A stretch of DNA of 18,880 nucleotides from a virus (taxonomy: Duplodnaviria > Heunggongvirae > Uroviricota > Caudoviricetes). Position numbers and translations under genes: made by a program. The DNA is taken from positions 1 to 18,880 of IMG/VR virus record IMGVR_UViG_2529292904_000021, one strand, 5' to 3'. Positions 3,046 through 17,414 of this stretch are shown one piece after another. Below the pieces are notes generated by a model. The model was not told the DNA's origin. It saw only the letters and a list, made by a program, of their open reading frames with translations, and made no database searches. Each line of letters opens with the position of its first letter. The stretch's first letter is position 1.

Positions 3046-3870
3046 TCAATTATGTTTTAAAAATGGATAGGTAAAGAATAACAAGTGACACAGATTCAAA
3101 CCAAAATGGAAAAGGGTGGCAACCCACAAACGCCCACTCCACATCCATGACAATCCATACACAACACCAGATAACGTGGCAAATAATACAAGTAAAGCAC
3201 CACCTGAATAGTGAAAAAAACCAAACAACAAAGCCGCCACAATTAATGCAACCAATGGAGACGTTACTTCTGATAGCCGTGATTGAATATACCCTCTAAA
3301 TAATGATTCCTCTGCCAGAGACACAAAAAACAAATTAGCCAATATAAACTCTGGCAACCACTCAGGAAAATGAATCTCTGGCTTTAATCCACCAAAAAAA
3401 ACAGCCAAAAACAGGATAAGAGGAACAGAGAGCGACAGAGCCCCCCACTTCCACAAAGACACTTCTGATTTTACTTCTTTTTTAAACAAAGAAGATGTAC
3501 ACAGGACTAACAAAAATGGCACCAGCGCTTTATCAAAATTAAAATACATTGTATAGGGAGTGCTTTGAGGGCCAACAGTAACAGAATTTAGCACTACAGG
3601 ATTGTGAAACCCTGGCCATAGATGGAAAGATAATGCTATGGCTGATAAAACCATGCCAACTTCATATATAGATTTAGCCCAGGCGTTATATTTCCAGTTG
3701 AACTTCAAAATAATAAAAAAAACGATTGTAGCAACAAAAAATAACACCGACCAATCAATAATATCATTAAGCACAGCCAGGACAACAGACACCGTCAACA
3801 ATGAAAAAGCCACTACCTTATGCCAACTGAGAGTTGACAGTGACAGTACTAACACAATCCACATAAGCAC
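3046..3870 (-). CDS. CPBP-family intramembrane metalloprotease (CAAX protease / Abi family, PF02517-like)
   Basis: Polytopic hydrophobic protein carrying the three CPBP signature motifs in order: EExxxR (AEESLFRGY), FxxxH (FGFFHYSGG), HxxxN (FHFGLNL). Strong RBS AAAGGAG 5 nt before the ATG. Markedly AT-rich. Confidence 0.8.
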   Translation of the reverse strand: MLMWIVLVLSLSTLSWHKVVAFSLLTVSVVLAVLNDIIDWSVLFFVATIVFFIILKFNWKYNAWAKSIYEVGMVLSAIALSFHLWPGFHNPVVLNSVTVGPQSTPYTMYFNFDKALVPFLLVLCTSSLFKKEVKSEVSLWKWGALSLSVPLILFLAVFFGGLKPEIHFPEWLPEFILANLFFVSLAEESLFRGYIQSRLSEVTSPLVALIVAALLFGFFHYSGGALLVLFATLSGVVYGLSWMWSGRLWVATLFHFGLNLCHLLFFTYPFLKHN

Positions 3871-8475: not shown

Positions 8476-8631
8476 TTACTCCTCAGGTTCGTAAGCTGTG
8501 AAGACAGCGACCTCCGTCTGGCCGGTTCGGATTCGTACCTCGCAGAGGTCTTTCCTCGTTACCAGTGCCGTCACTATGACGGTTAAACAGATGACGATCA
8601 GGGCGATTAACATCGCCTTTTGCTGCTTCAT
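8476..8631 (-). CDS. hokD: Hok/Gef-family type I toxin HokD (RelF)
   Basis: Not in the ORF track (51 aa). My translation is MKQQKAMLIALIVICLTVIVTALVTRKDLCEVRIRTGQTEVAVFTAYEPEE, which matches E. coli HokD as I recall it. SD AAGGAG sits 9 nt upstream. Confidence 0.85.
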   Translation of the reverse strand: MKQQKAMLIALIVICLTVIVTALVTRKDLCEVRIRTGQTEVAVFTAYEPEE

Positions 8632-8842
8632 AGCCTGCTTCTCCTTGACCTTTTGGTCCGTAAGAGGCTAATCTCTATGTGTCGCATAGATATGGCCTCA
8701 GATTAATGTTAAGCGTCTTGCAGGACGCGTAATGTTAACTGGGGCTTTTCTCTATCTGCCTTTTGGTGTTCATGCCTGAGGCAGATAGCCTCAAGCACCC
8801 GCAGCAATTCTACTTAACTCCCGTCACCTCGCCAATATAAAA

Positions 8843-9002: not shown

Positions 9003-10034
9003 CTACCAATCAATAAAATCAGTGATGTTATCCAACCTAATTACAGTAACTTCCCGTCTCAACTGGTTTTTCCAATATATCTCACGAGCGTTTTGTTCAC
9101 CAGCACCGCTCCACTCAATTACTCTTAAAGGCTTAGAGGTTAGGTAAGGTCGAATAAGCAGGTTAAGGTGAATATCGAGACCAGAGTAACCAAACAATAT
9201 TATTTCTTCTGATTCAAATAATGCAAACTGCAAATAATCCCAGTACGTAGAAAGAACATTAGATGCTGCTATAACTGACGGTTTTCTTTTTATATGAGTT
9301 AACACTATATGCTCACTAGGTTCATCTATGTCAAGAGTAAGTTGTGAGCGTGAAAGTTTTAAAACATTTTCATGCTGATTAATAAATAGTGGTGAACCAT
9401 GCAAGTGCAAATAATAACCAAACCTACGATTGTATTTCCGTTCGAGCGCTGCAGAGGAAAATCCGTGGCTTAGCATCCCATCAACTAAAACCCCATCATA
9501 CCCGTTGAATATATCATTATCTATGAATGAATTGTATAATAATTTGTCATAGTTTAATGTCGCGATATGTGAGTGTGTGTTCTTTACAAACTCCACAAGC
9601 GCATTTTCGAATCTTTGTGGCAAACCTTTATCGTAATTATGCAACCTGGTTGCAACTTTGTGAATATAAGTGGCGGTAATTTTGGGGAAGTTTAGTCCAT
9701 CTTCAGTAAGCCAATGCACGTTCCCCTCTCCAATTTGAGCAAGAGCTTTACAATATGTGACAGCCTGGTGAAGGGTATCCAACTCATGTTCTCCTTCTGG
9801 TGGACCTTGCCGCTGAAGACAACGCTCGATAAGTTGCTTGTGGATATCTTTTAAAAAATTGGGGCGATGCCAAATTTCTTCCAACGCTCTGTCTAAGGAG
9901 AAGTGAGCAGGATCTAAAGCCATACCGAGACCGTTGCCGAATATTATTAATTTTCTTGCCATATAGGGGGACTCATATTGGAATAACGCTGGATAGCGTA
10001 GCGCGATACGCTTAAGTTTAGGATTAATAGACAT
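9003..10034 (-). CDS. SIR2-like (sirtuin-fold, SIR2_2-type) protein; candidate NAD+-consuming antiphage effector
   Basis: Sirtuin-type motif order: glycine-rich LIIFGNGLGMA near the N-terminus, TLNYD (TTNYD-like), HLHGS (catalytic HG), and FGYSGLD near the C-terminus. AT-rich gene with an AT-rich upstream region. Confidence 0.55.
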   Translation of the reverse strand: MSINPKLKRIALRYPALFQYESPYMARKLIIFGNGLGMALDPAHFSLDRALEEIWHRPNFLKDIHKQLIERCLQRQGPPEGEHELDTLHQAVTYCKALAQIGEGNVHWLTEDGLNFPKITATYIHKVATRLHNYDKGLPQRFENALVEFVKNTHSHIATLNYDKLLYNSFIDNDIFNGYDGVLVDGMLSHGFSSAALERKYNRRFGYYLHLHGSPLFINQHENVLKLSRSQLTLDIDEPSEHIVLTHIKRKPSVIAASNVLSTYWDYLQFALFESEEIILFGYSGLDIHLNLLIRPYLTSKPLRVIEWSGAGEQNAREIYWKNQLRREVTVIRLDNITDFIDW

Positions 10035-10850: not shown

Positions 10851-11870
10851 TTATCCCCTGAAACCAGGCGGAATTTCTGTATCCGGTTCAGAAATATGAT
10901 TCACACAACGCTGTATAGACGAACGCCCCAGACGGATGACCAGTTCATCCCATTTTTCACGAAGCTTTGACGGGCTCATGATGTTTTTTACCCAGAATGG
11001 ATCTCGCTGTACCCGACCAAACATTTCGCAAATTTGTCTGTGGCTTCTGCCATCCAGCATCCGCATTGTGCGCACGTCATTGGCCCAGGCAGTCCAGTTA
11101 GGCTCTTTTGGTCGCATGATCTCGCCATCATCACTGGCTGCCTGTTCGTAGAGACCCACGATCCGCCCCCAGATCCACTGCGCACACGCCAAATCCTCCC
11201 TGCTACCCCACTGGCGTTTTTTCGCACTAAACACAACCGCGTCGGAGTTCCGGGTTAAAAAATCCTGTTCAGTCGTCTGCGGGTCCGGTTGCGAAGCTTC
11301 CGGACGAAAAGTGTTTTTATTCTCTGTAGTAATCTCTGTTGTATTCTCTGTAAGATCATCAGGCCATTTTGACCCGATGACATTGGGTCGTTTTGAACCA
11401 ATGGAGCGTTTCATTTTGACCTCTTCCATCGTGTCATTTTGACCTGATGGAGCGGCGCATTTTGAACCGATGGATTCGCTCAATTTGCCACCATCTAAAA
11501 GCTCGCTCCCATAGTTGATCGTGTAGAAATTGGTCATATCGCGCTTTGATTTATTGAGCTTTTCACAACGCAAAAGCCCCAGCGTTTTCAGACTTGCAAA
11601 CGCGCGCTTTAACGTTGACTCTGACCAGAATGGGAACTGTTCCAGCCATTGTTCCGTTGTGTTGTAAATCCAGCGAACACCATCACATTCCATGCCGGAA
11701 TTGGTATCTCTCAACCAGTAATGCAACTGCTGCAACACAATGGCTTCATTTAAGCCAATCTTCATCGCAAGCTGTGTGTTTATAACCAGTGGGCGTTCAG
11801 CAAAAAGAAGGCTCATAATTCCATCCAGCTTTTTGTTGGTATTGCTGTCGATACGCAAGTTTGAAAGCAA
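10851..11870 (-). CDS. Lambda O-like replication initiator protein
   Basis: N-terminus MSLLFAERPLVINTQLAMKIGLNEAIVLQQLHYWL is typical of phage O / replication proteins. The central linker is encoded by iterons (repeated IGSK peptide). Likely true start is the MSLLF Met near 11816; the track start is 11870. Confidence 0.75.
   Translation of the reverse strand: MLSNLRIDSNTNKKLDGIMSLLFAERPLVINTQLAMKIGLNEAIVLQQLHYWLRDTNSGMECDGVRWIYNTTEQWLEQFPFWSESTLKRAFASLKTLGLLRCEKLNKSKRDMTNFYTINYGSELLDGGKLSESIGSKCAAPSGQNDTMEEVKMKRSIGSKRPNVIGSKWPDDLTENTTEITTENKNTFRPEASQPDPQTTEQDFLTRNSDAVVFSAKKRQWGSREDLACAQWIWGRIVGLYEQAASDDGEIMRPKEPNWTAWANDVRTMRMLDGRSHRQICEMFGRVQRDPFWVKNIMSPSKLREKWDELVIRLGRSSIQRCVNHISEPDTEIPPGFRG
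11321..11481. repeat. Candidate phage replication origin: about five ~23-bp iterons plus adjacent short repeats, inside the O-like gene
   Basis: Iterons with core CATTTTGA(C/A)C..ATGG beginning near 11366, 11390, 11413, 11436 and 11459. Three tctctgt(a/t)gtaa-type repeats at ~11321-11356 lie on the far side, mirroring the lambda ori layout (iterons then AT-rich segment within O). Confidence 0.7.
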
Positions 11871-13014: not shown

Positions 13015-13207
13015 TCATCCCTTCACAAAATTTTAAAGCCTTACATTTCAATGTATTGGCTTTATCTTGCGTCAATACTTGAGTTTTCTCATCAAAAAAC
13101 CCTGACAAAAAAACAATGAGAAAACTAAATTACCTCCATCAAGACACCGCACGGTGTTCTCAGCAAACAGTTCCGCTACCCCGGCGTTAAGGGGAAATGA
13201 GGTCAAC

Positions 13208-13360
13208 ATGGATACTATCGATCTTGGCAACAACGAATCTCTGGTATGCGGCGTGTTTCCCAACCAAGACGGCACGTTCACCGCGATGACGTATACCAAA
13301 AGCAAAACGTTTAAAACCGAATCTGGCGCGCGTCGCTGGTTAGCAAGAAACTCTGACTAA
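13208..13360 (+). CDS. ydfA: YdfA-like small protein (DUF1391)
   Basis: MDTIDLGNNESLVCGVFPNQDGTFTAMTYTKSKTFKTESGARRWLARNSD matches Qin YdfA as I recall it. GAGGT SD upstream; sits after dicA as in Qin. Confidence 0.75.
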   Translation: MDTIDLGNNESLVCGVFPNQDGTFTAMTYTKSKTFKTESGARRWLARNSD

Positions 13361-13473
13361 TGAAATCTGGTAATTAAGGAATCCTCCACGGGGGGGAGTG
13401 GTGCACACGCGCCGGACACAAGCAAGCATCCGGCATGCTCTTTAACAATCTGGATATCCATAACAGTAAAAAT

Positions 13474-13965
13474 CTACAGATTGCCGTTCAGTTTTCTGGC
13501 CAACTCTTCAAGAGATGGAGGCGATACGTAATCCGGATTTTTATTCATAAGAAACTGATTTTCACAGTACAGGCACCTGCTTTTATGAAAAAATTCATAT
13601 TCTCTAACCGGGAATGGCTGAAGTATCGATACTATCTTTTGTCCAAAACATTTTGGACAAAGATGCATGATTATGCTGCCGCCGTTCACGGTTACCTCCT
13701 TCGAGTACACAAAAGTTCCCGACTCAAGTTGGCTAAGGATATAACCTTCCGTCTGAGCCTCAAAGTTTTCAAATTCTGCAATTTTAGCTTTGAGAGAAGC
13801 ATTTATTTCTTGATAAGTGCCCACCAGCTCAACGAGAGACACGCATTCGCGCTGAATAGATGCAAGCTTTGAGTTCAGTTCACCAATAGCCGCATTTACT
13901 TCAGCTTGAGTTTTTGCCTCGTTCATTAGTTTTGCAATCTGGGCGGTTTCACGAATAGCCGTCAT
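13474..13965 (-). CDS. Hypothetical coiled-coil protein with C-terminal CxxC...CxxC zinc ribbon, reverse-oriented inside the dicB operon
   Basis: Track ORF 13474..14223. Protein-like composition starts at MTAIRETAQIAKLMNEAKTQ... (Met at 13965); the C-terminus has HLCPKCFGQK...CLYCENQF. The N-terminal 86 codons of the track ORF run across tandem repeats and are probably not coding. Confidence 0.5.
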   Translation of the reverse strand: MTAIRETAQIAKLMNEAKTQAEVNAAIGELNSKLASIQRECVSLVELVGTYQEINASLKAKIAEFENFEAQTEGYILSQLESGTFVYSKEVTVNGGSIIMHLCPKCFGQKIVSILQPFPVREYEFFHKSRCLYCENQFLMNKNPDYVSPPSLEELARKLNGNL

Positions 13966-14003
13966 TGCTGCCGTTAATTCAGCGATCACATTCAATACTC
14001 TTA

Positions 14004-14051
14004 TTGTTGTTGGGGATATCCAGATTAACAAGATCCTTGTTGTTGGGGAAT
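14004..14051. repeat. Tandem direct repeat TTGTTGTTGGGGA(A)TA (2 copies, ~32 bp apart) upstream of the reverse-oriented gene
   Basis: ttgttgttggggata at ~14004 and ttgttgttggggaata at ~14036. A further inverted repeat cctcgcc...ggcgagg lies at ~14065-14115. Confidence 0.5.
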
Positions 14052-14303
14052 AACGGGGACCACCTCGCCTGACGTGGTAAAAAGCAGGCACACAACACGA
14101 AAGCACACGGCGAGGTTGCTGGTTCATAGATAGCCTATCGTTAAATTTTCGTCGACCGTGCGCTTCCGGTTGTGGCAATCCGCGAAATGGCGCGGCGGTA
14201 AGTATGGCTGGGGTTTCCTCCATTGCTCCAGAAAATGCACCGGGTTGTCAGGTTGACCATACGCTTAAGTGACAACCCCGCTACAACGCCCTCTGTTATC
14301 AAT

Positions 14304-14361
14304 TTTCTGGTGACATTTGGCGGTATCAGTTTTACTCCGTGACTGCTCTGCCGCCCTTTTT
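14304..14361 (+). ncRNA. dicF: DicF small RNA (ftsZ-targeting sRNA processed from the dicB operon transcript)
   Basis: TTTCTGGTGACATTTGGCGGTATCAGTTTTACTCCGTGACTGCTCTGCCGCCCTTTTT matches E. coli DicF as I recall it, including the terminator hairpin GGCGG...CCGCC plus U-run. Sits immediately upstream of dicB. Confidence 0.85.
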
Positions 14362-14530: not shown

Positions 14531-14719
14531 ATGGAAACGTTATTACCAAACGTTAATACGTCTGAAGGTTGTTTTGATATTGGTGTTCTGCTCAGTAATA
14601 AAGCGTTTACTGAGGATGCCATTAATATGCGGAAATATGAGCCTTATCTGCTCAATGATAATTCCATACTTTCCCGAATTGCTCTTCTTGAACTTGGTAT
14701 TTTCGGAGAACAGCAGTGA
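14531..14719 (+). CDS. dicB: DicB cell-division inhibitor
   Basis: 62 aa, METLLPNVNTSEGCFDIGVLLSNKAFTEDAIN... resembles DicB (MKTLLPNVNTSEGCFEIG...). GAGGA SD upstream. Track ORF is extended upstream to 14426. Confidence 0.8.
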   Translation: METLLPNVNTSEGCFDIGVLLSNKAFTEDAINMRKYEPYLLNDNSILSRIALLELGIFGEQQ

Positions 14720-14996: not shown

Positions 14997-17414
14997 ATGA
15001 ACGCTGATAAAGAAGAAATTGCACTATATTACGAAGCCAAAAATGACAAAGTCAGAAAACGCCTTGGGATTAAAGGTGGTTTTTACTGGCGCACAGCAAA
15101 AAAATTATCGGTTGCAATATCACGCGGTGTTGCTGCAATGGACGATGCCGGATTTGACGAAGAGGATTTTAAAAAACCCATCCGCGTCCATTTACCCGTT
15201 GTGAATGACCTTCCACCGGAAGGTGTGTTTGATACTGAATTCTGCAACCGATACGAAAAAGGCGGAGAAGATGGTATCACAATGATACTTATCGCGCCCT
15301 CTGTTCCGGACAAACCAGCCAGTACTGACAATACCAACGTCAACGGCGAAGACATGGCTAAGATTGAGGAGAATATGCTTCTTCCGGTTTCAGGTCAGAT
15401 TCTGCCTGTTCGCTGGCTGGCGCAACACAACAGCGAAAAACCGGTCACGCACGTTTCACTGGACAAACTGCGCGCATTACATAACGCACAGGATGAAAAA
15501 CTTCCCGCCGTTACCGCGCTGGCCATCTCAAATAAAGCAGTGCAACTCGAACCGCTGGAGATTCGGGATTTGTACAAACTGGTGCGAGACACTGACAAAG
15601 TTTTCCCCGCCCCCGTAAATTCGGACCTGGGACTGATGACCTCTTTTATCGAAGCATACCTGGGCGCTGACTACACCGATCGCGGTCTGCTTACAAAAGA
15701 GTGGATGAAAGGAAATAGTGTTTCACGCATCAGCCGCACGCCATCCGGCGCTAACGCTGGCGGCGGCATTCTTACCGATCGCGGCGAAGGTTTTGTCCAC
15801 GATGATGCGTCAGTGGCGCGTGACGTAGCCACTGGCGTACTGGCCCGTTCAATGGACGTGGATATTTATAACCTTCATCCCGCACACGCTAAACGCATTG
15901 AGGAAATTATCGCTGAAAATAAACCGCCATTTACTGTGTTTTTCAGCAAATTCATCACCATGCCGGGCCACAAGGATTACTCCCGCGCCATCGTGGTTGC
16001 GTCCGTGAAAGAAGCACCAATTGGTATAGAGGCTACTCCCCACCGTGTCACCGAATACCTGAATAAGGTGCTGACTGAAACCGATCATGCCACCCCTGAT
16101 CCGGAAATCGTGGATATTGCCTGTGGCCGCTCCTCTGCCCCGATGCCGCAGCGTGTAACAAAAGAAGGAAAACAGGATGATGAAGAAAAACCGCAGCCAT
16201 CTGGCGCAATGGCAGATGAACAGGCAACGACTGAAGCAGTGGAACCGGATACAACTGAACATAATCAGGACACGCAGTCGATGGATGCTCAGCCACAGAT
16301 AAATTCTGTTGATGCGAAATATCAGAAACTGCGTGCAGAACTCCATGAAGCCAAGAAAAACATTCCACCCAAAAATCCTGTCGATGCAGATAAATTACTG
16401 GCTGCTTCTCGCGGAGAATTTGTTGAAGGGATTAGCGACCCGAATGATCCAAAATGGGTGAAGGGGATCCAGAGTCGCGATGATGATGACCAGAATCAGG
16501 ATAAAGCGGAACAAAACAGCCCAAATGCGTTACAAAACGAGCCAAAAACAAAACAACCAGAACCAGTAGTGCAACAAGAACCAGAAAAAGTTTGCACCAC
16601 ATGTGGTCAGACCGGTGGCGGCAACTGTCCTGACTGTAGTGCGGTGATGGGGAACGCAACCTACCAGGAAACATTCGATGAAGAGAATCAGGCTGAAGCT
16701 CAGAAAAATGATCCGGAGGAAATGGAAGGCACTGAACATCTGCACAAGGAGAACACTGGCAGCGATCAGTATCACGCCAGCGATAATAAAACTGGCGAAA
16801 CAGCAAATCCCTTAATTAAAGTGAACGGTCATCATGAAATCTCATCCACCAGCAGGTTGTGGCACCATCTGATGATTGACCTTGAAGCAATGGGAAAAAA
16901 TCCTGATGCGCCAATAAACGCTATAGCCGGTAAGTTTTTTGATCCGGCAACCGGAGATATGGGGCCAGAATTCAGCAAAACTATCGATCTGGAAACCGCA
17001 GGCGGGGTCATCGATCGGGACACCATTAAGTGGTGGCTGAAACAGTCACGCGAAGCACAATCCTCCATTCTGACCGATGAAATCCCGTTGGATGATGCAC
17101 TGCTGCAATTACGGGAATTTATCGACGAAAACTCCGGTGAATTTTTTGTTCAGGTCTGGGGTAACGGTGCAACTTTCGACAACGTGATTTTACGCCGTTC
17201 ATATGAACGGCAGGGGATCCCCTGCCCGTGGCGTTACACCAATGATCGCGATGTAAGAACGATGGTTGCTCTGGGACTGGTGATGGATTTCGACGCAAGA
17301 ACGACTATTCCATTCGAAGGTGAACGCCATAACGCCCTGCACGATGCGCGTTACCAGGCAAAATACGTTTCAGCCATCTGGCAAAAACTGATCCCGAGTC
17401 AGGCTGATTTTTAA
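14997..17414 (+). CDS. YdfE-like large prophage protein: N-terminal domain, acidic low-complexity linker with CxxC...CxxC motif, C-terminal DnaQ-like (DEDDh) 3'-5' exonuclease domain
   Basis: 805 aa. C-terminal Exo motifs: MIDLEAMG (D..E), [25 protein letters not shown] (H..D). Long D/E/Q/K/P-rich stretch and [15 protein letters not shown] in the middle. Occupies the exo/recE position next to xis-int. Confidence 0.7.

Follow-up and report, generated by a model that had tools for sequence, protein, structure and literature searches.

A reverse-oriented Rip1-like gene on a mobile cassette in the dicB operon of an Escherichia coli O55:H7 prophage

Results

Locus and coding sequence

The DNA considered here (the window) is the whole 18,880-nucleotide (nt) stretch of the virus record IMGVR_UViG_2529292904_000021, which is 100% identical to a lambdoid, Qin/Rac-like prophage of Escherichia coli O55:H7 RM12579 integrated beside tRNA-Ser and mtfA. 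Our subject is a gene on the minus strand (13474-13989) that is carried backwards on a small cassette in the dicB operon, and whose product, judged by homology and predicted fold, is a divergent member of a known family, that of the anti-phage protein Rip1. The plus strand of this region carries, in order, a dicA-like repressor gene, ydfA (13208-13360, RefSeq annotation), the small RNA (sRNA) DicF (14305-14356; Rfam RF00039, 77 bits), dicB (14531-14719, RefSeq annotation), a ydfD-like gene, a gene for an 805-amino-acid (aa) exonuclease, and int. This series is the early-left operon of the prophage, and DicF lies downstream of the cassette on the same operon transcript. Qin-type operons are kept repressed by DicA in lysogens. 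As the initial annotation of this DNA had claimed, a convergent gene does lie inside the dicB operon: the minus-strand open reading frame (ORF) occupies the gap between ydfA and dicF, and it is annotated in RefSeq as a 'hypothetical protein' (WP_000559929.1).

We place the start of the gene at the GTG at 13989, because MIAEL is the N-terminus of all 32 aligned homologues (from Escherichia, Salmonella, Citrobacter, Klebsiella, Enterobacter, Edwardsiella, Arsenophonus and others) and the GTG is preserved in all E. coli alleles examined. The protein is thus 171 aa long, and the length of about 163 aa given earlier has to be corrected, since the ATG at 13965 on which it was based is eight codons too far inside. 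In the other direction, some phage annotations use an in-frame extension to the ATG at 14223 (249 aa), which we rejected because the homologues start at MIAEL and the DNA is unconserved beyond about 14092. Long N-terminal extensions (222-243 aa) have also been annotated by some depositors, as in phage PhiR49_1 (our locus L004, 3288-4016) and in P0025, P0035 and P0102; the family alignment indicates that these are annotation artefacts.

The gene is under purifying selection. Relative to alleles that differ by up to 6% in DNA, the ratio of nonsynonymous to synonymous substitution rates (dN/dS) is 0.17-0.28, and the ORF is intact in all alleles examined; this synonymous-biased variation bears out the coding status that had been proposed for it. 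The cassette block with the gene was found in 655 of 5,426 complete E. coli genomes.

Protein family

Scans of the protein with Pfam, NCBIfam and PADLOC returned only sub-threshold coiled-coil noise, and the match in PHROGs (1e-57) was to phrog_1244, a family of unknown function. The Protein Data Bank (PDB) was more informative. A family profile built from 33 homologues matched one PDB sequence, 9oox, with E=1.1e-23 over 151 of 176 positions, and the single protein sequence matched the same entry with E=3.6e-7. According to its title, 9oox is Escherichia phage HK446 Rip1 in complex with the Enterobacteria phage T6 small terminase. With hhalign, the alignment to HK446 gp37 (the protein in 9oox) had a probability of 98.95% (E=9e-18, 145 columns), and tblastn to HK446, HK620 and JBD30 gave 27-31% identity over 85-91% of the length. 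The family is large and uniform in size: a whole-library profile search returned 3,237 clusters at 50% identity, nearly all of 145-180 aa. The function of the reverse gene is not recognisable without the 2026 Rip1 structure.

The predicted fold points to the same relative. In the AlphaFold2 model (pLDDT 83.8), residues 2-24 and 28-79 form helices, in agreement with the coiled-coil N-terminal half of the initial annotation, and the C-terminal half is beta-rich. In a Foldseek search of the PDB only 9oox chains were significant (9oox_L and 9oox_M, both with probability 1.00), the match to 9oox_M having E=1.2e-5, a target-normalised TM-score of 0.72 and an rmsd of 3.5 A over 118 columns; the next match had E=0.64, and none other had E<0.1. 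The zinc ribbon recognised earlier also holds, given that its cysteines (C111, C114, C139 and C142) are invariant in two family alignments. In the alignment of 37 members with 20-39% identity, HK446, HK620 and JBD30 included, the CxxC...CxxC cysteines are the sole invariant columns. The N-terminal helix (residues 7-24) has a hydrophobic moment of 0.44, compared with 0.42 in HK446 Rip1, although this is a weak test.

The window protein has in common with Rip1 of the HK446 gp37 type and of the JBD30 gp30 type, a Pseudomonas casadabanvirus moron, a similar length (171 vs 164 aa), full-length collinear homology, long N-terminal helices, and a beta-rich half with CxxC...CxxC and an S-I-L-Q motif, and both are prophage morons turned backwards in an operon. 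Zip (PilZ-binding) and Tab (tail assembly blocker), other defences from the Maxwell laboratory, were considered and belong to unrelated families. We found no experimental data on WP_000559929 or WP_000559928 in the literature searched.

The action of Rip1 (ring interacting pore 1; Patel et al., Nature 651:1060, 2026) is taken here from a review (PMC13434031). According to that review, the rip1 gene of Pseudomonas prophages lies between the small and large terminase genes, lysogens are protected, and Rip1 alone is not toxic. Escape mutations map to the portal for phages of Pseudomonas and to the small terminase for those of E. coli. A small-terminase 11-mer is surrounded by twelve monomers of Rip1, with the C-terminal half touching the ring, and the N-terminal amphipathic helices constitute the pore, with release of dye from liposomes. 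Infected cells are described as lysing prematurely because Rip1 forms this pore.

Compared with the allele that is 94% identical in DNA (the 94% allele), the window allele has 11 amino-acid differences, all at residue 58 or beyond and 10 of them in the C-terminal half, and the first 57 residues are identical. By our own arithmetic from the allele translations, such confinement has a probability of about 0.01 under a uniform distribution. These differences, at residues 58-164 (window 13498-13818), fit faster evolution of a presumed trigger-binding sensor surface.

Cassette and gene context

Comparison by BLAST with the Qin prophage of K-12 showed homology in three stretches: ydfA (13137-13353), the sequence directly behind ydfC (13370-13433), and the spacer with dicF and dicB (14080 onwards). 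The ydfB-ydfC genes of K-12 Qin are absent from the window, their place being between 13353 and 13370. The earlier suggestion that the gene stands in place of ydfB/ydfC is therefore correct in that these genes are gone, but the reverse gene did not simply replace them: it lies on a separate cassette of about 650 bp (approximate limits 13436-14092, from the Qin comparison and junction alignments) placed in the spacer between ydfC and dicF. K-12 Qin is without this cassette; at least three different prophage backbones carry it, with 94-100% identity. In yfdP/yfdQ-type prophages it adjoins cI. In a prophage at potC in EDL933, the same cassette is present at 99.7% identity, and dicF and dicB have been lost; there, only a truncated remnant of the gene for the 805-aa exonuclease follows it.

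The ORF is flanked by an inverted repeat (13447-13472 and 14001-14026; 26 nt, 81% complementary) with the core AATCTGGATATCC / GGATATCCAGATT, the sole long inverted repeat. The Salmonella, Citrobacter and Klebsiella cassettes have kept both arms, and by our own comparison of alignments two of three substitutions in the 94% allele raise the complementarity of the arms. This repeat may allow the 5' and 3' ends of the mRNA to pair, or it may be a relic of cassette formation. A long inverted repeat had also been reported upstream of the gene, where we find only short dyads, namely 8-nt inverted arms (14062-14069 and 14109-14116) and the interleaved 5-bp dyads described below.

The relatives of the gene are arranged in a similar way. 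JBD30 gp30, with 164 aa and 30% identity to the window protein, is turned backwards between the terminase genes; for HK446 Rip1, HK620 HkaP and HK630 HkaP the place is the pL operon, again backwards and flanked by N and cIII. The Citrobacter and Klebsiella prophage homologues are backwards between cI and the early-left genes, and the Salmonella homologue is backwards just after cro. All inspected contexts were phage or prophage, with the gene opposed to the surrounding early or late operon. Because the contexts of its relatives are alike in this respect, the backwards arrangement in the window is normal for the Rip1 family. The window subfamily differs from Rip1 in its residence in N-less Qin/Rac-type and yfdP-type prophages, in a C-terminal tail of about 20 residues, in an associated boxA, and in the allele of an upstream repeat (CCCCAACAACA instead of CCCCTACAG).

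Upstream module

As the flanks of the homologues show, conservation is higher in the module of roughly 105 nt that precedes the gene than in the protein itself. Nearly the whole module is common to E. coli, Salmonella, Citrobacter and Klebsiella, with proteins that are 51-70% identical. HK446 and HK620 (24-28% protein identity) have only its first part, TGCCTG-N8-CCAC-N2-CAGGC-N3-GTGG, and direct repeats with the same spacing and a different sequence, TACCCCTACAG; they thus share with the window an upstream element and a leader with twin repeats. We call the upstream element the P element. In the window it reads GCCTG-N8-CCAC-N2-CAGGC-N3-GTGGT on the minus strand (14059-14089) and contains two interleaved 5-bp dyads.

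The repeats are two exact copies of the 13-nt sequence TTGTTGTTGGGGA, the only ones in the whole window, both on the minus strand: copy 1 at 14037-14049 and copy 2, TCCCCAACAACAA on the gene strand, at 14004-14016. The initial annotation had noticed both copies but took them for tandem repeats, whereas they are direct repeats 33 nt apart. The two copies co-vary, in that they match each other and differ between alleles (CCCCAACAACA, CCCCTACAG, TTCCACAGTCAA, CCCCAATGCAA and CCCCCACAA). A palindrome between the repeats, AACAAGGATCTTGTT, was considered as an operator and rejected, since neither the 94% allele nor other genera preserve it intact.

Between the copies, the minus strand carries the hexamer TAATCT (14022-14027). 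The pattern TAnnnT occurs at this position in all 44 unique related leaders (TAATCT in 21, TAAACT in 6, TATAAT in 4), and in 40 of them it ends 5-7 nt upstream of copy 2. Because of this conservation and spacing, we read the hexamer as the candidate -10 of a moron promoter and infer that copy 2 is the 5' end of the rip1-like mRNA. A scan for consensus promoters and terminators called no site for the rip1-like gene, and the hexamer escapes it because the -35 is poor. A Shine-Dalgarno-like (SD) AAGAG, read from the sequence, is found on the minus strand at 13998-14002, 8 nt upstream of the GTG; homologous leaders have AAGAG, AAGGA or GAGAG at this position. The self-contained cassette, the conserved -10 just upstream and the opposing orientation throughout support an independent moron, which was one of the two roles first suggested for the gene.

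The P element is not confined to rip1-like genes. A scan of IMG/VR for GCCTG-N7-8-CCAC-N-TCAGGC gave at least 120 loci (cargo loci were numbered L020-L139, e.g. L062, L077, L036, L053, L061 and L064). Among the matches listed, a Rip1-family ORF stands behind 13 elements, and in 86 loci the element lies upstream of at least 27 unrelated clusters of small ORFs (63-193 aa). One of these cargo clusters is SieB (PF14163, 1.5e-25), and the others have no Pfam or PADLOC assignment. One cargo family (144-148 aa, beginning MSGNIYTLYKSHCENVGKYRG) carries the repeat allele of the window, CCCCAACAACA. Two architectures can be distinguished. The short one has TGGTATnCT, read by us as a probable extended -10, at the end of the element, and then a hairpin with co-varying stems and the SD on its 3' arm. 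The long one, to which the window belongs, consists of the element, repeat copy 1, the hexamer, copy 2, the SD and the start codon.

Antisense strand

In phage P22, sieB is under the cis-antisense RNA sas, which switches the translation of the sieB message (PMC12197685, PMC7067206). The sequence of P22 sas (11387-11513, minus strand) is available from a small-RNA sequencing study of 2026 (PMC13397905). We found that it is the exact complement of a long-type leader, from the sieB start codon through both repeats to just past the P element, which thus lies near the 3' end of the sequenced RNA. The plus strand of the window at 13984-14112 is collinear with P22 sas, and by our own reading of the alignment the last 40 nt or so are about 85% identical. 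A putative sas-like antisense region on the plus strand (13984-14095) would therefore cover the rip1 start codon, the SD, both repeats and the P element.

A hairpin at copy 1 is more significant on the antisense strand than on the gene strand. On the plus strand, 14034-14044 pairs with 14049-14059 around a GGGG loop, and by our own count three of the pairs are G-U pairs that become C-A mismatches on the gene strand. Against composition-controlled shuffles, the antisense hairpin had a mean z of -2.92, with 25 of 29 below -1.64, compared with a mean z of -1.43 and 10 of 29 on the gene strand. Searches of Rfam, at gathering thresholds and at E<=10, gave nothing in the region besides DicF.

The window gene resembles the sieB-esc-sas system of P22 and lambda in the P element, the co-varying repeats with a -10 between them, the start about 100 nt downstream, and the backwards placement in an early-left operon. 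It differs in its cargo, as SieB is a membrane protein (PF14163) unrelated to the Rip1-like protein. P22 also has the internal start of Esc, needed there for self-immunity, and its sas RNA has been sequenced, whereas that of the window is predicted from sequence.

boxA and the 3' side of the gene

Directly after the stop codon, all enterobacterial copies of the gene have GGATATCCAGATTGTTAAAGAGC, so that the operon strand reads (T)GCTCTTTAACAA. In the window, GCTCTTTAACAA lies on the plus strand at 13437-13448, at the point of entry of the operon transcript into the antisense stretch, and with the preceding T (13436-13448) it equals the rrn boxA consensus. It matches the consensus GCUCUUUAACAA at 12 of 12 positions on the transcribed strand, in a promoter-proximal position in the operon; it is the single copy in the window, where 0.002 would be expected by chance. 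In the region of K-12 Qin examined there is no boxA. As a control, the pattern GCTCTT[TA]A recovered the annotated nutL and nutR of HK620 and a lambda-like nutL of HK446, on the correct strands. Across eight homologous loci in four genera, boxA is found 15-28 nt after the stop codon, and the only cargo it accompanies is Rip1 of the MIAEL type. Its position is nut-like: after ydfA or cI on the early-left side, and after cro on the early-right side in Salmonella. It therefore shares with the boxA of rrn operons and lambdoid nut sites, a NusB-S10 antitermination signal, both the full match on the operon strand and the place just after a promoter-proximal gene. Unlike lambdoid nut sites, the window boxA has no recognisable boxB hairpin or N gene.

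In other backbones (O103, Salmonella, Citrobacter and Klebsiella prophages) the cassette is followed by a canonical terminator, AAGCGTCC-TGTA-GGGCGCTTTTTT. In the window its place (13361-13473, minus strand) is taken by a Qin-derived hairpin (GCCGGA...TCCGGC) that lacks a U-tract, and because of this replacement the rip1-like transcript may run antisense into ydfA.

Other genes of the prophage

A stand-alone SIR2-family gene (WP_000101550.1, about 9003-9962, minus strand) lies in the replication/nin-side region, adjoining hokD and the sok antitoxin RNA (8476-8800; Rfam, 107 bits); this is possibly another defence or addiction cluster. The middle of the 805-aa 'exonuclease' ORF (14997-17414, plus strand) is long, acidic and of low complexity; the ORF also has a cysteine motif, and its C-terminal end resembles 3'-5' exonucleases. 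On the late-regulatory side (1167-1683 and 3046-3864, minus strand) there are an STnc100-type sRNA (138 bits), three phage tRNAs (Arg, Arg and Ile), a gene for a CPBP-family intramembrane protease and a frameshifted TrmB-type regulator.

Discussion

We consider it probable that the reverse gene is an anti-phage gene of the Rip1 family, carried on a backwards cassette together with a sieB-type control module. In this scenario, the lysogen would express the Rip1-like protein from its own promoter, and the protein would be harmless before another phage infects. By analogy with Rip1, it could then form a ring around the oligomeric small terminase or portal of the invader, with the C-terminal zinc-ribbon half making the contact. 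The N-terminal amphipathic helices would form a membrane pore, and the cell would be lysed or depolarised before progeny mature, that is, by abortive infection. On induction of the prophage itself, the dicB-operon transcript would yield a sas-like RNA that shuts off Rip1 synthesis, with pairing perhaps nucleated between the G-rich loops of this RNA and the rip1-like mRNA, whose 5' end is C-rich. The cassette boxA could recruit Nus factors and so help the operon RNA polymerase to cross the untranslated antisense stretch on its way to dicF and dicB.

Several observations speak against this explanation or parts of it. The mechanism of Rip1 is known to us at second hand, from the review (PMC13434031) and the title of the PDB entry. 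The characterised Rip1 proteins are only 24-30% identical to the window protein, and the helical part of the AlphaFold2 model superposes poorly on a single 9oox chain (TMq 0.39). As for the control module, the 141-nt upstream region of the window folds no better than shuffled sequences on either strand (z +0.68 and -0.49). The only stem that RNAalifold found in 42 leaders, GCCUG/CAGGC, is invariant and does not count as evidence, because the search pattern had imposed it. On reading the sequence of the 5' end of the ORF, we saw no convincing -35/-10 for a separate sas-like promoter. The family alignment has no conserved internal start like that of P22 Esc: M9 (ATG 13965) belongs neither to the invariant columns nor to those at least 90% conserved, and several homologues have I, L, Y or F in its place. 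Finally, no intrinsic terminator was called after the gene in this backbone.

An alternative is classical superinfection exclusion, in which the protein would block the entry of incoming DNA at the envelope instead of forming an abortive-infection pore. HK620 HkaP is annotated as a 'putative superinfection exclusion protein', the slot and leader are those of sieB, and in the JBD30 paper (PMC11445458) Tsao et al. 2018 is cited for gp30 as a moron 'blocking phage genome injection'. We find this unlikely. The window protein has no signal peptide or transmembrane segment (the maximum Kyte-Doolittle mean over 19 residues is 1.13). Even SieB, in the 1993 work of Ranade and Poteete, is said to act after injection, which counts against a block of DNA entry. 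Moreover, the later family work, as given in the review (PMC13434031), found late cytoplasmic triggers (small terminase and portal) and a pore complex.

The other role first suggested for the gene was regulatory, with reverse transcription colliding or pairing with the dicB-operon transcript and so tuning DicF and DicB. The convergent geometry would allow this, as would the lack of a terminator-like site after the gene, so that its transcript may reach ydfA antisense, and about 650 nt of operon RNA upstream of DicF is complementary to the transcript of the reverse gene. However, the cassette is intact in EDL933 despite the deletion of dicF and dicB, and it occurs in yfdP-type, Salmonella, Citrobacter and Klebsiella prophages with no dicF nearby. 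A purely transcriptional role would need neither purifying selection nor invariant residues, and the Qin-type operon is repressed by DicA in lysogens. Control of DicF and DicB is therefore unsupported, because the cassette is kept without dicF and dicB, the protein is selected, and the P22 precedent runs from operon to gene; we hold it to be quite improbable. That precedent suggests instead that an opposite-strand RNA from the operon silences the rip1-like gene, the reverse of the direction in the initial annotation.

A zinc-ribbon regulator that binds nucleic acids, for instance an antirepressor or a prophage transcription factor, seems very improbable. It would be in keeping with the coiled coil and four-cysteine ribbon, which are common in DNA- and RNA-binding proteins, and with a gene that adjoins the immunity region in all enterobacterial contexts. 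Yet there was no match to a DNA-binding family in Pfam, NCBIfam or PHROGs, the Rip1 pore complex is the sole significant relative in both sequence and structure, and the Pseudomonas homologues lie in the late region rather than the immunity region. There is similarly very little likelihood that the gene is a functionless hitch-hiker decaying in a cryptic Qin-like prophage, despite the backbone deletions (ydfB/ydfC here, dicF-dicB in EDL933) and the loss of the canonical terminator in this backbone, given the intact ORF, the retained GTG and low dN/dS, and an intact upstream module and SD that hardly differ from those of distant relatives.

Some of what is proposed here for the Rip1-like gene is already known: the mechanism of Rip1 since 2026 and the control module of P22 sieB/sas since 1993. 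We have not found described the breadth of cargo behind the P element, the co-varying twin repeats as possible loop and target, or the boxA that appears to be linked to the cassette. We tentatively suggest that the P element and twin-repeat leader are a portable chassis, or hot-spot, for backwards prophage genes. An opposite-strand RNA cut from the early-operon transcript (here the DicF precursor) would switch the abortive-infection gene off during the prophage's own lytic growth, through G-rich hairpin loops that are complementary to the 5' end of the mRNA of the cargo, and boxA would prevent termination within the untranslated antisense stretch. Known hot-spots for morons and defence genes (the lambda rexAB and sieB region, P2/P4) have in common with this arrangement a conserved flank, swappable small cargo and expression from the prophage. 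However, those hot-spots are flanked by core genes, whereas here the flank is a promoter, leader and antisense module of about 30-100 nt.

About 12% of complete E. coli genomes, those of O157:H7 EDL933 and O55:H7 among them, encode this 'hypothetical protein', for which the present analyses provide a name and a mechanism that can be tested; this is relevant to the phage susceptibility of O157:H7 and O55:H7 pathogens and to phage therapy or biocontrol. Because about 650 nt of antisense untranslated RNA and a boxA lie upstream of DicF in these prophages, results obtained with K-12 Qin may not transfer directly to their DicF and DicB. In E. coli phages the place of the Rip1 gene is the long-known sieB slot, and the gene has its control region in common with sieB, which ties a defence described in 2026 to an antisense switch of 1993. 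The other small genes behind the P element are reasonable candidates for defence or exclusion functions. If the P element is indeed a portable chassis, it would offer a simple way of finding new defence genes by sequence, and the sas mechanism would be a general self-immunity device rather than a curiosity of P22.

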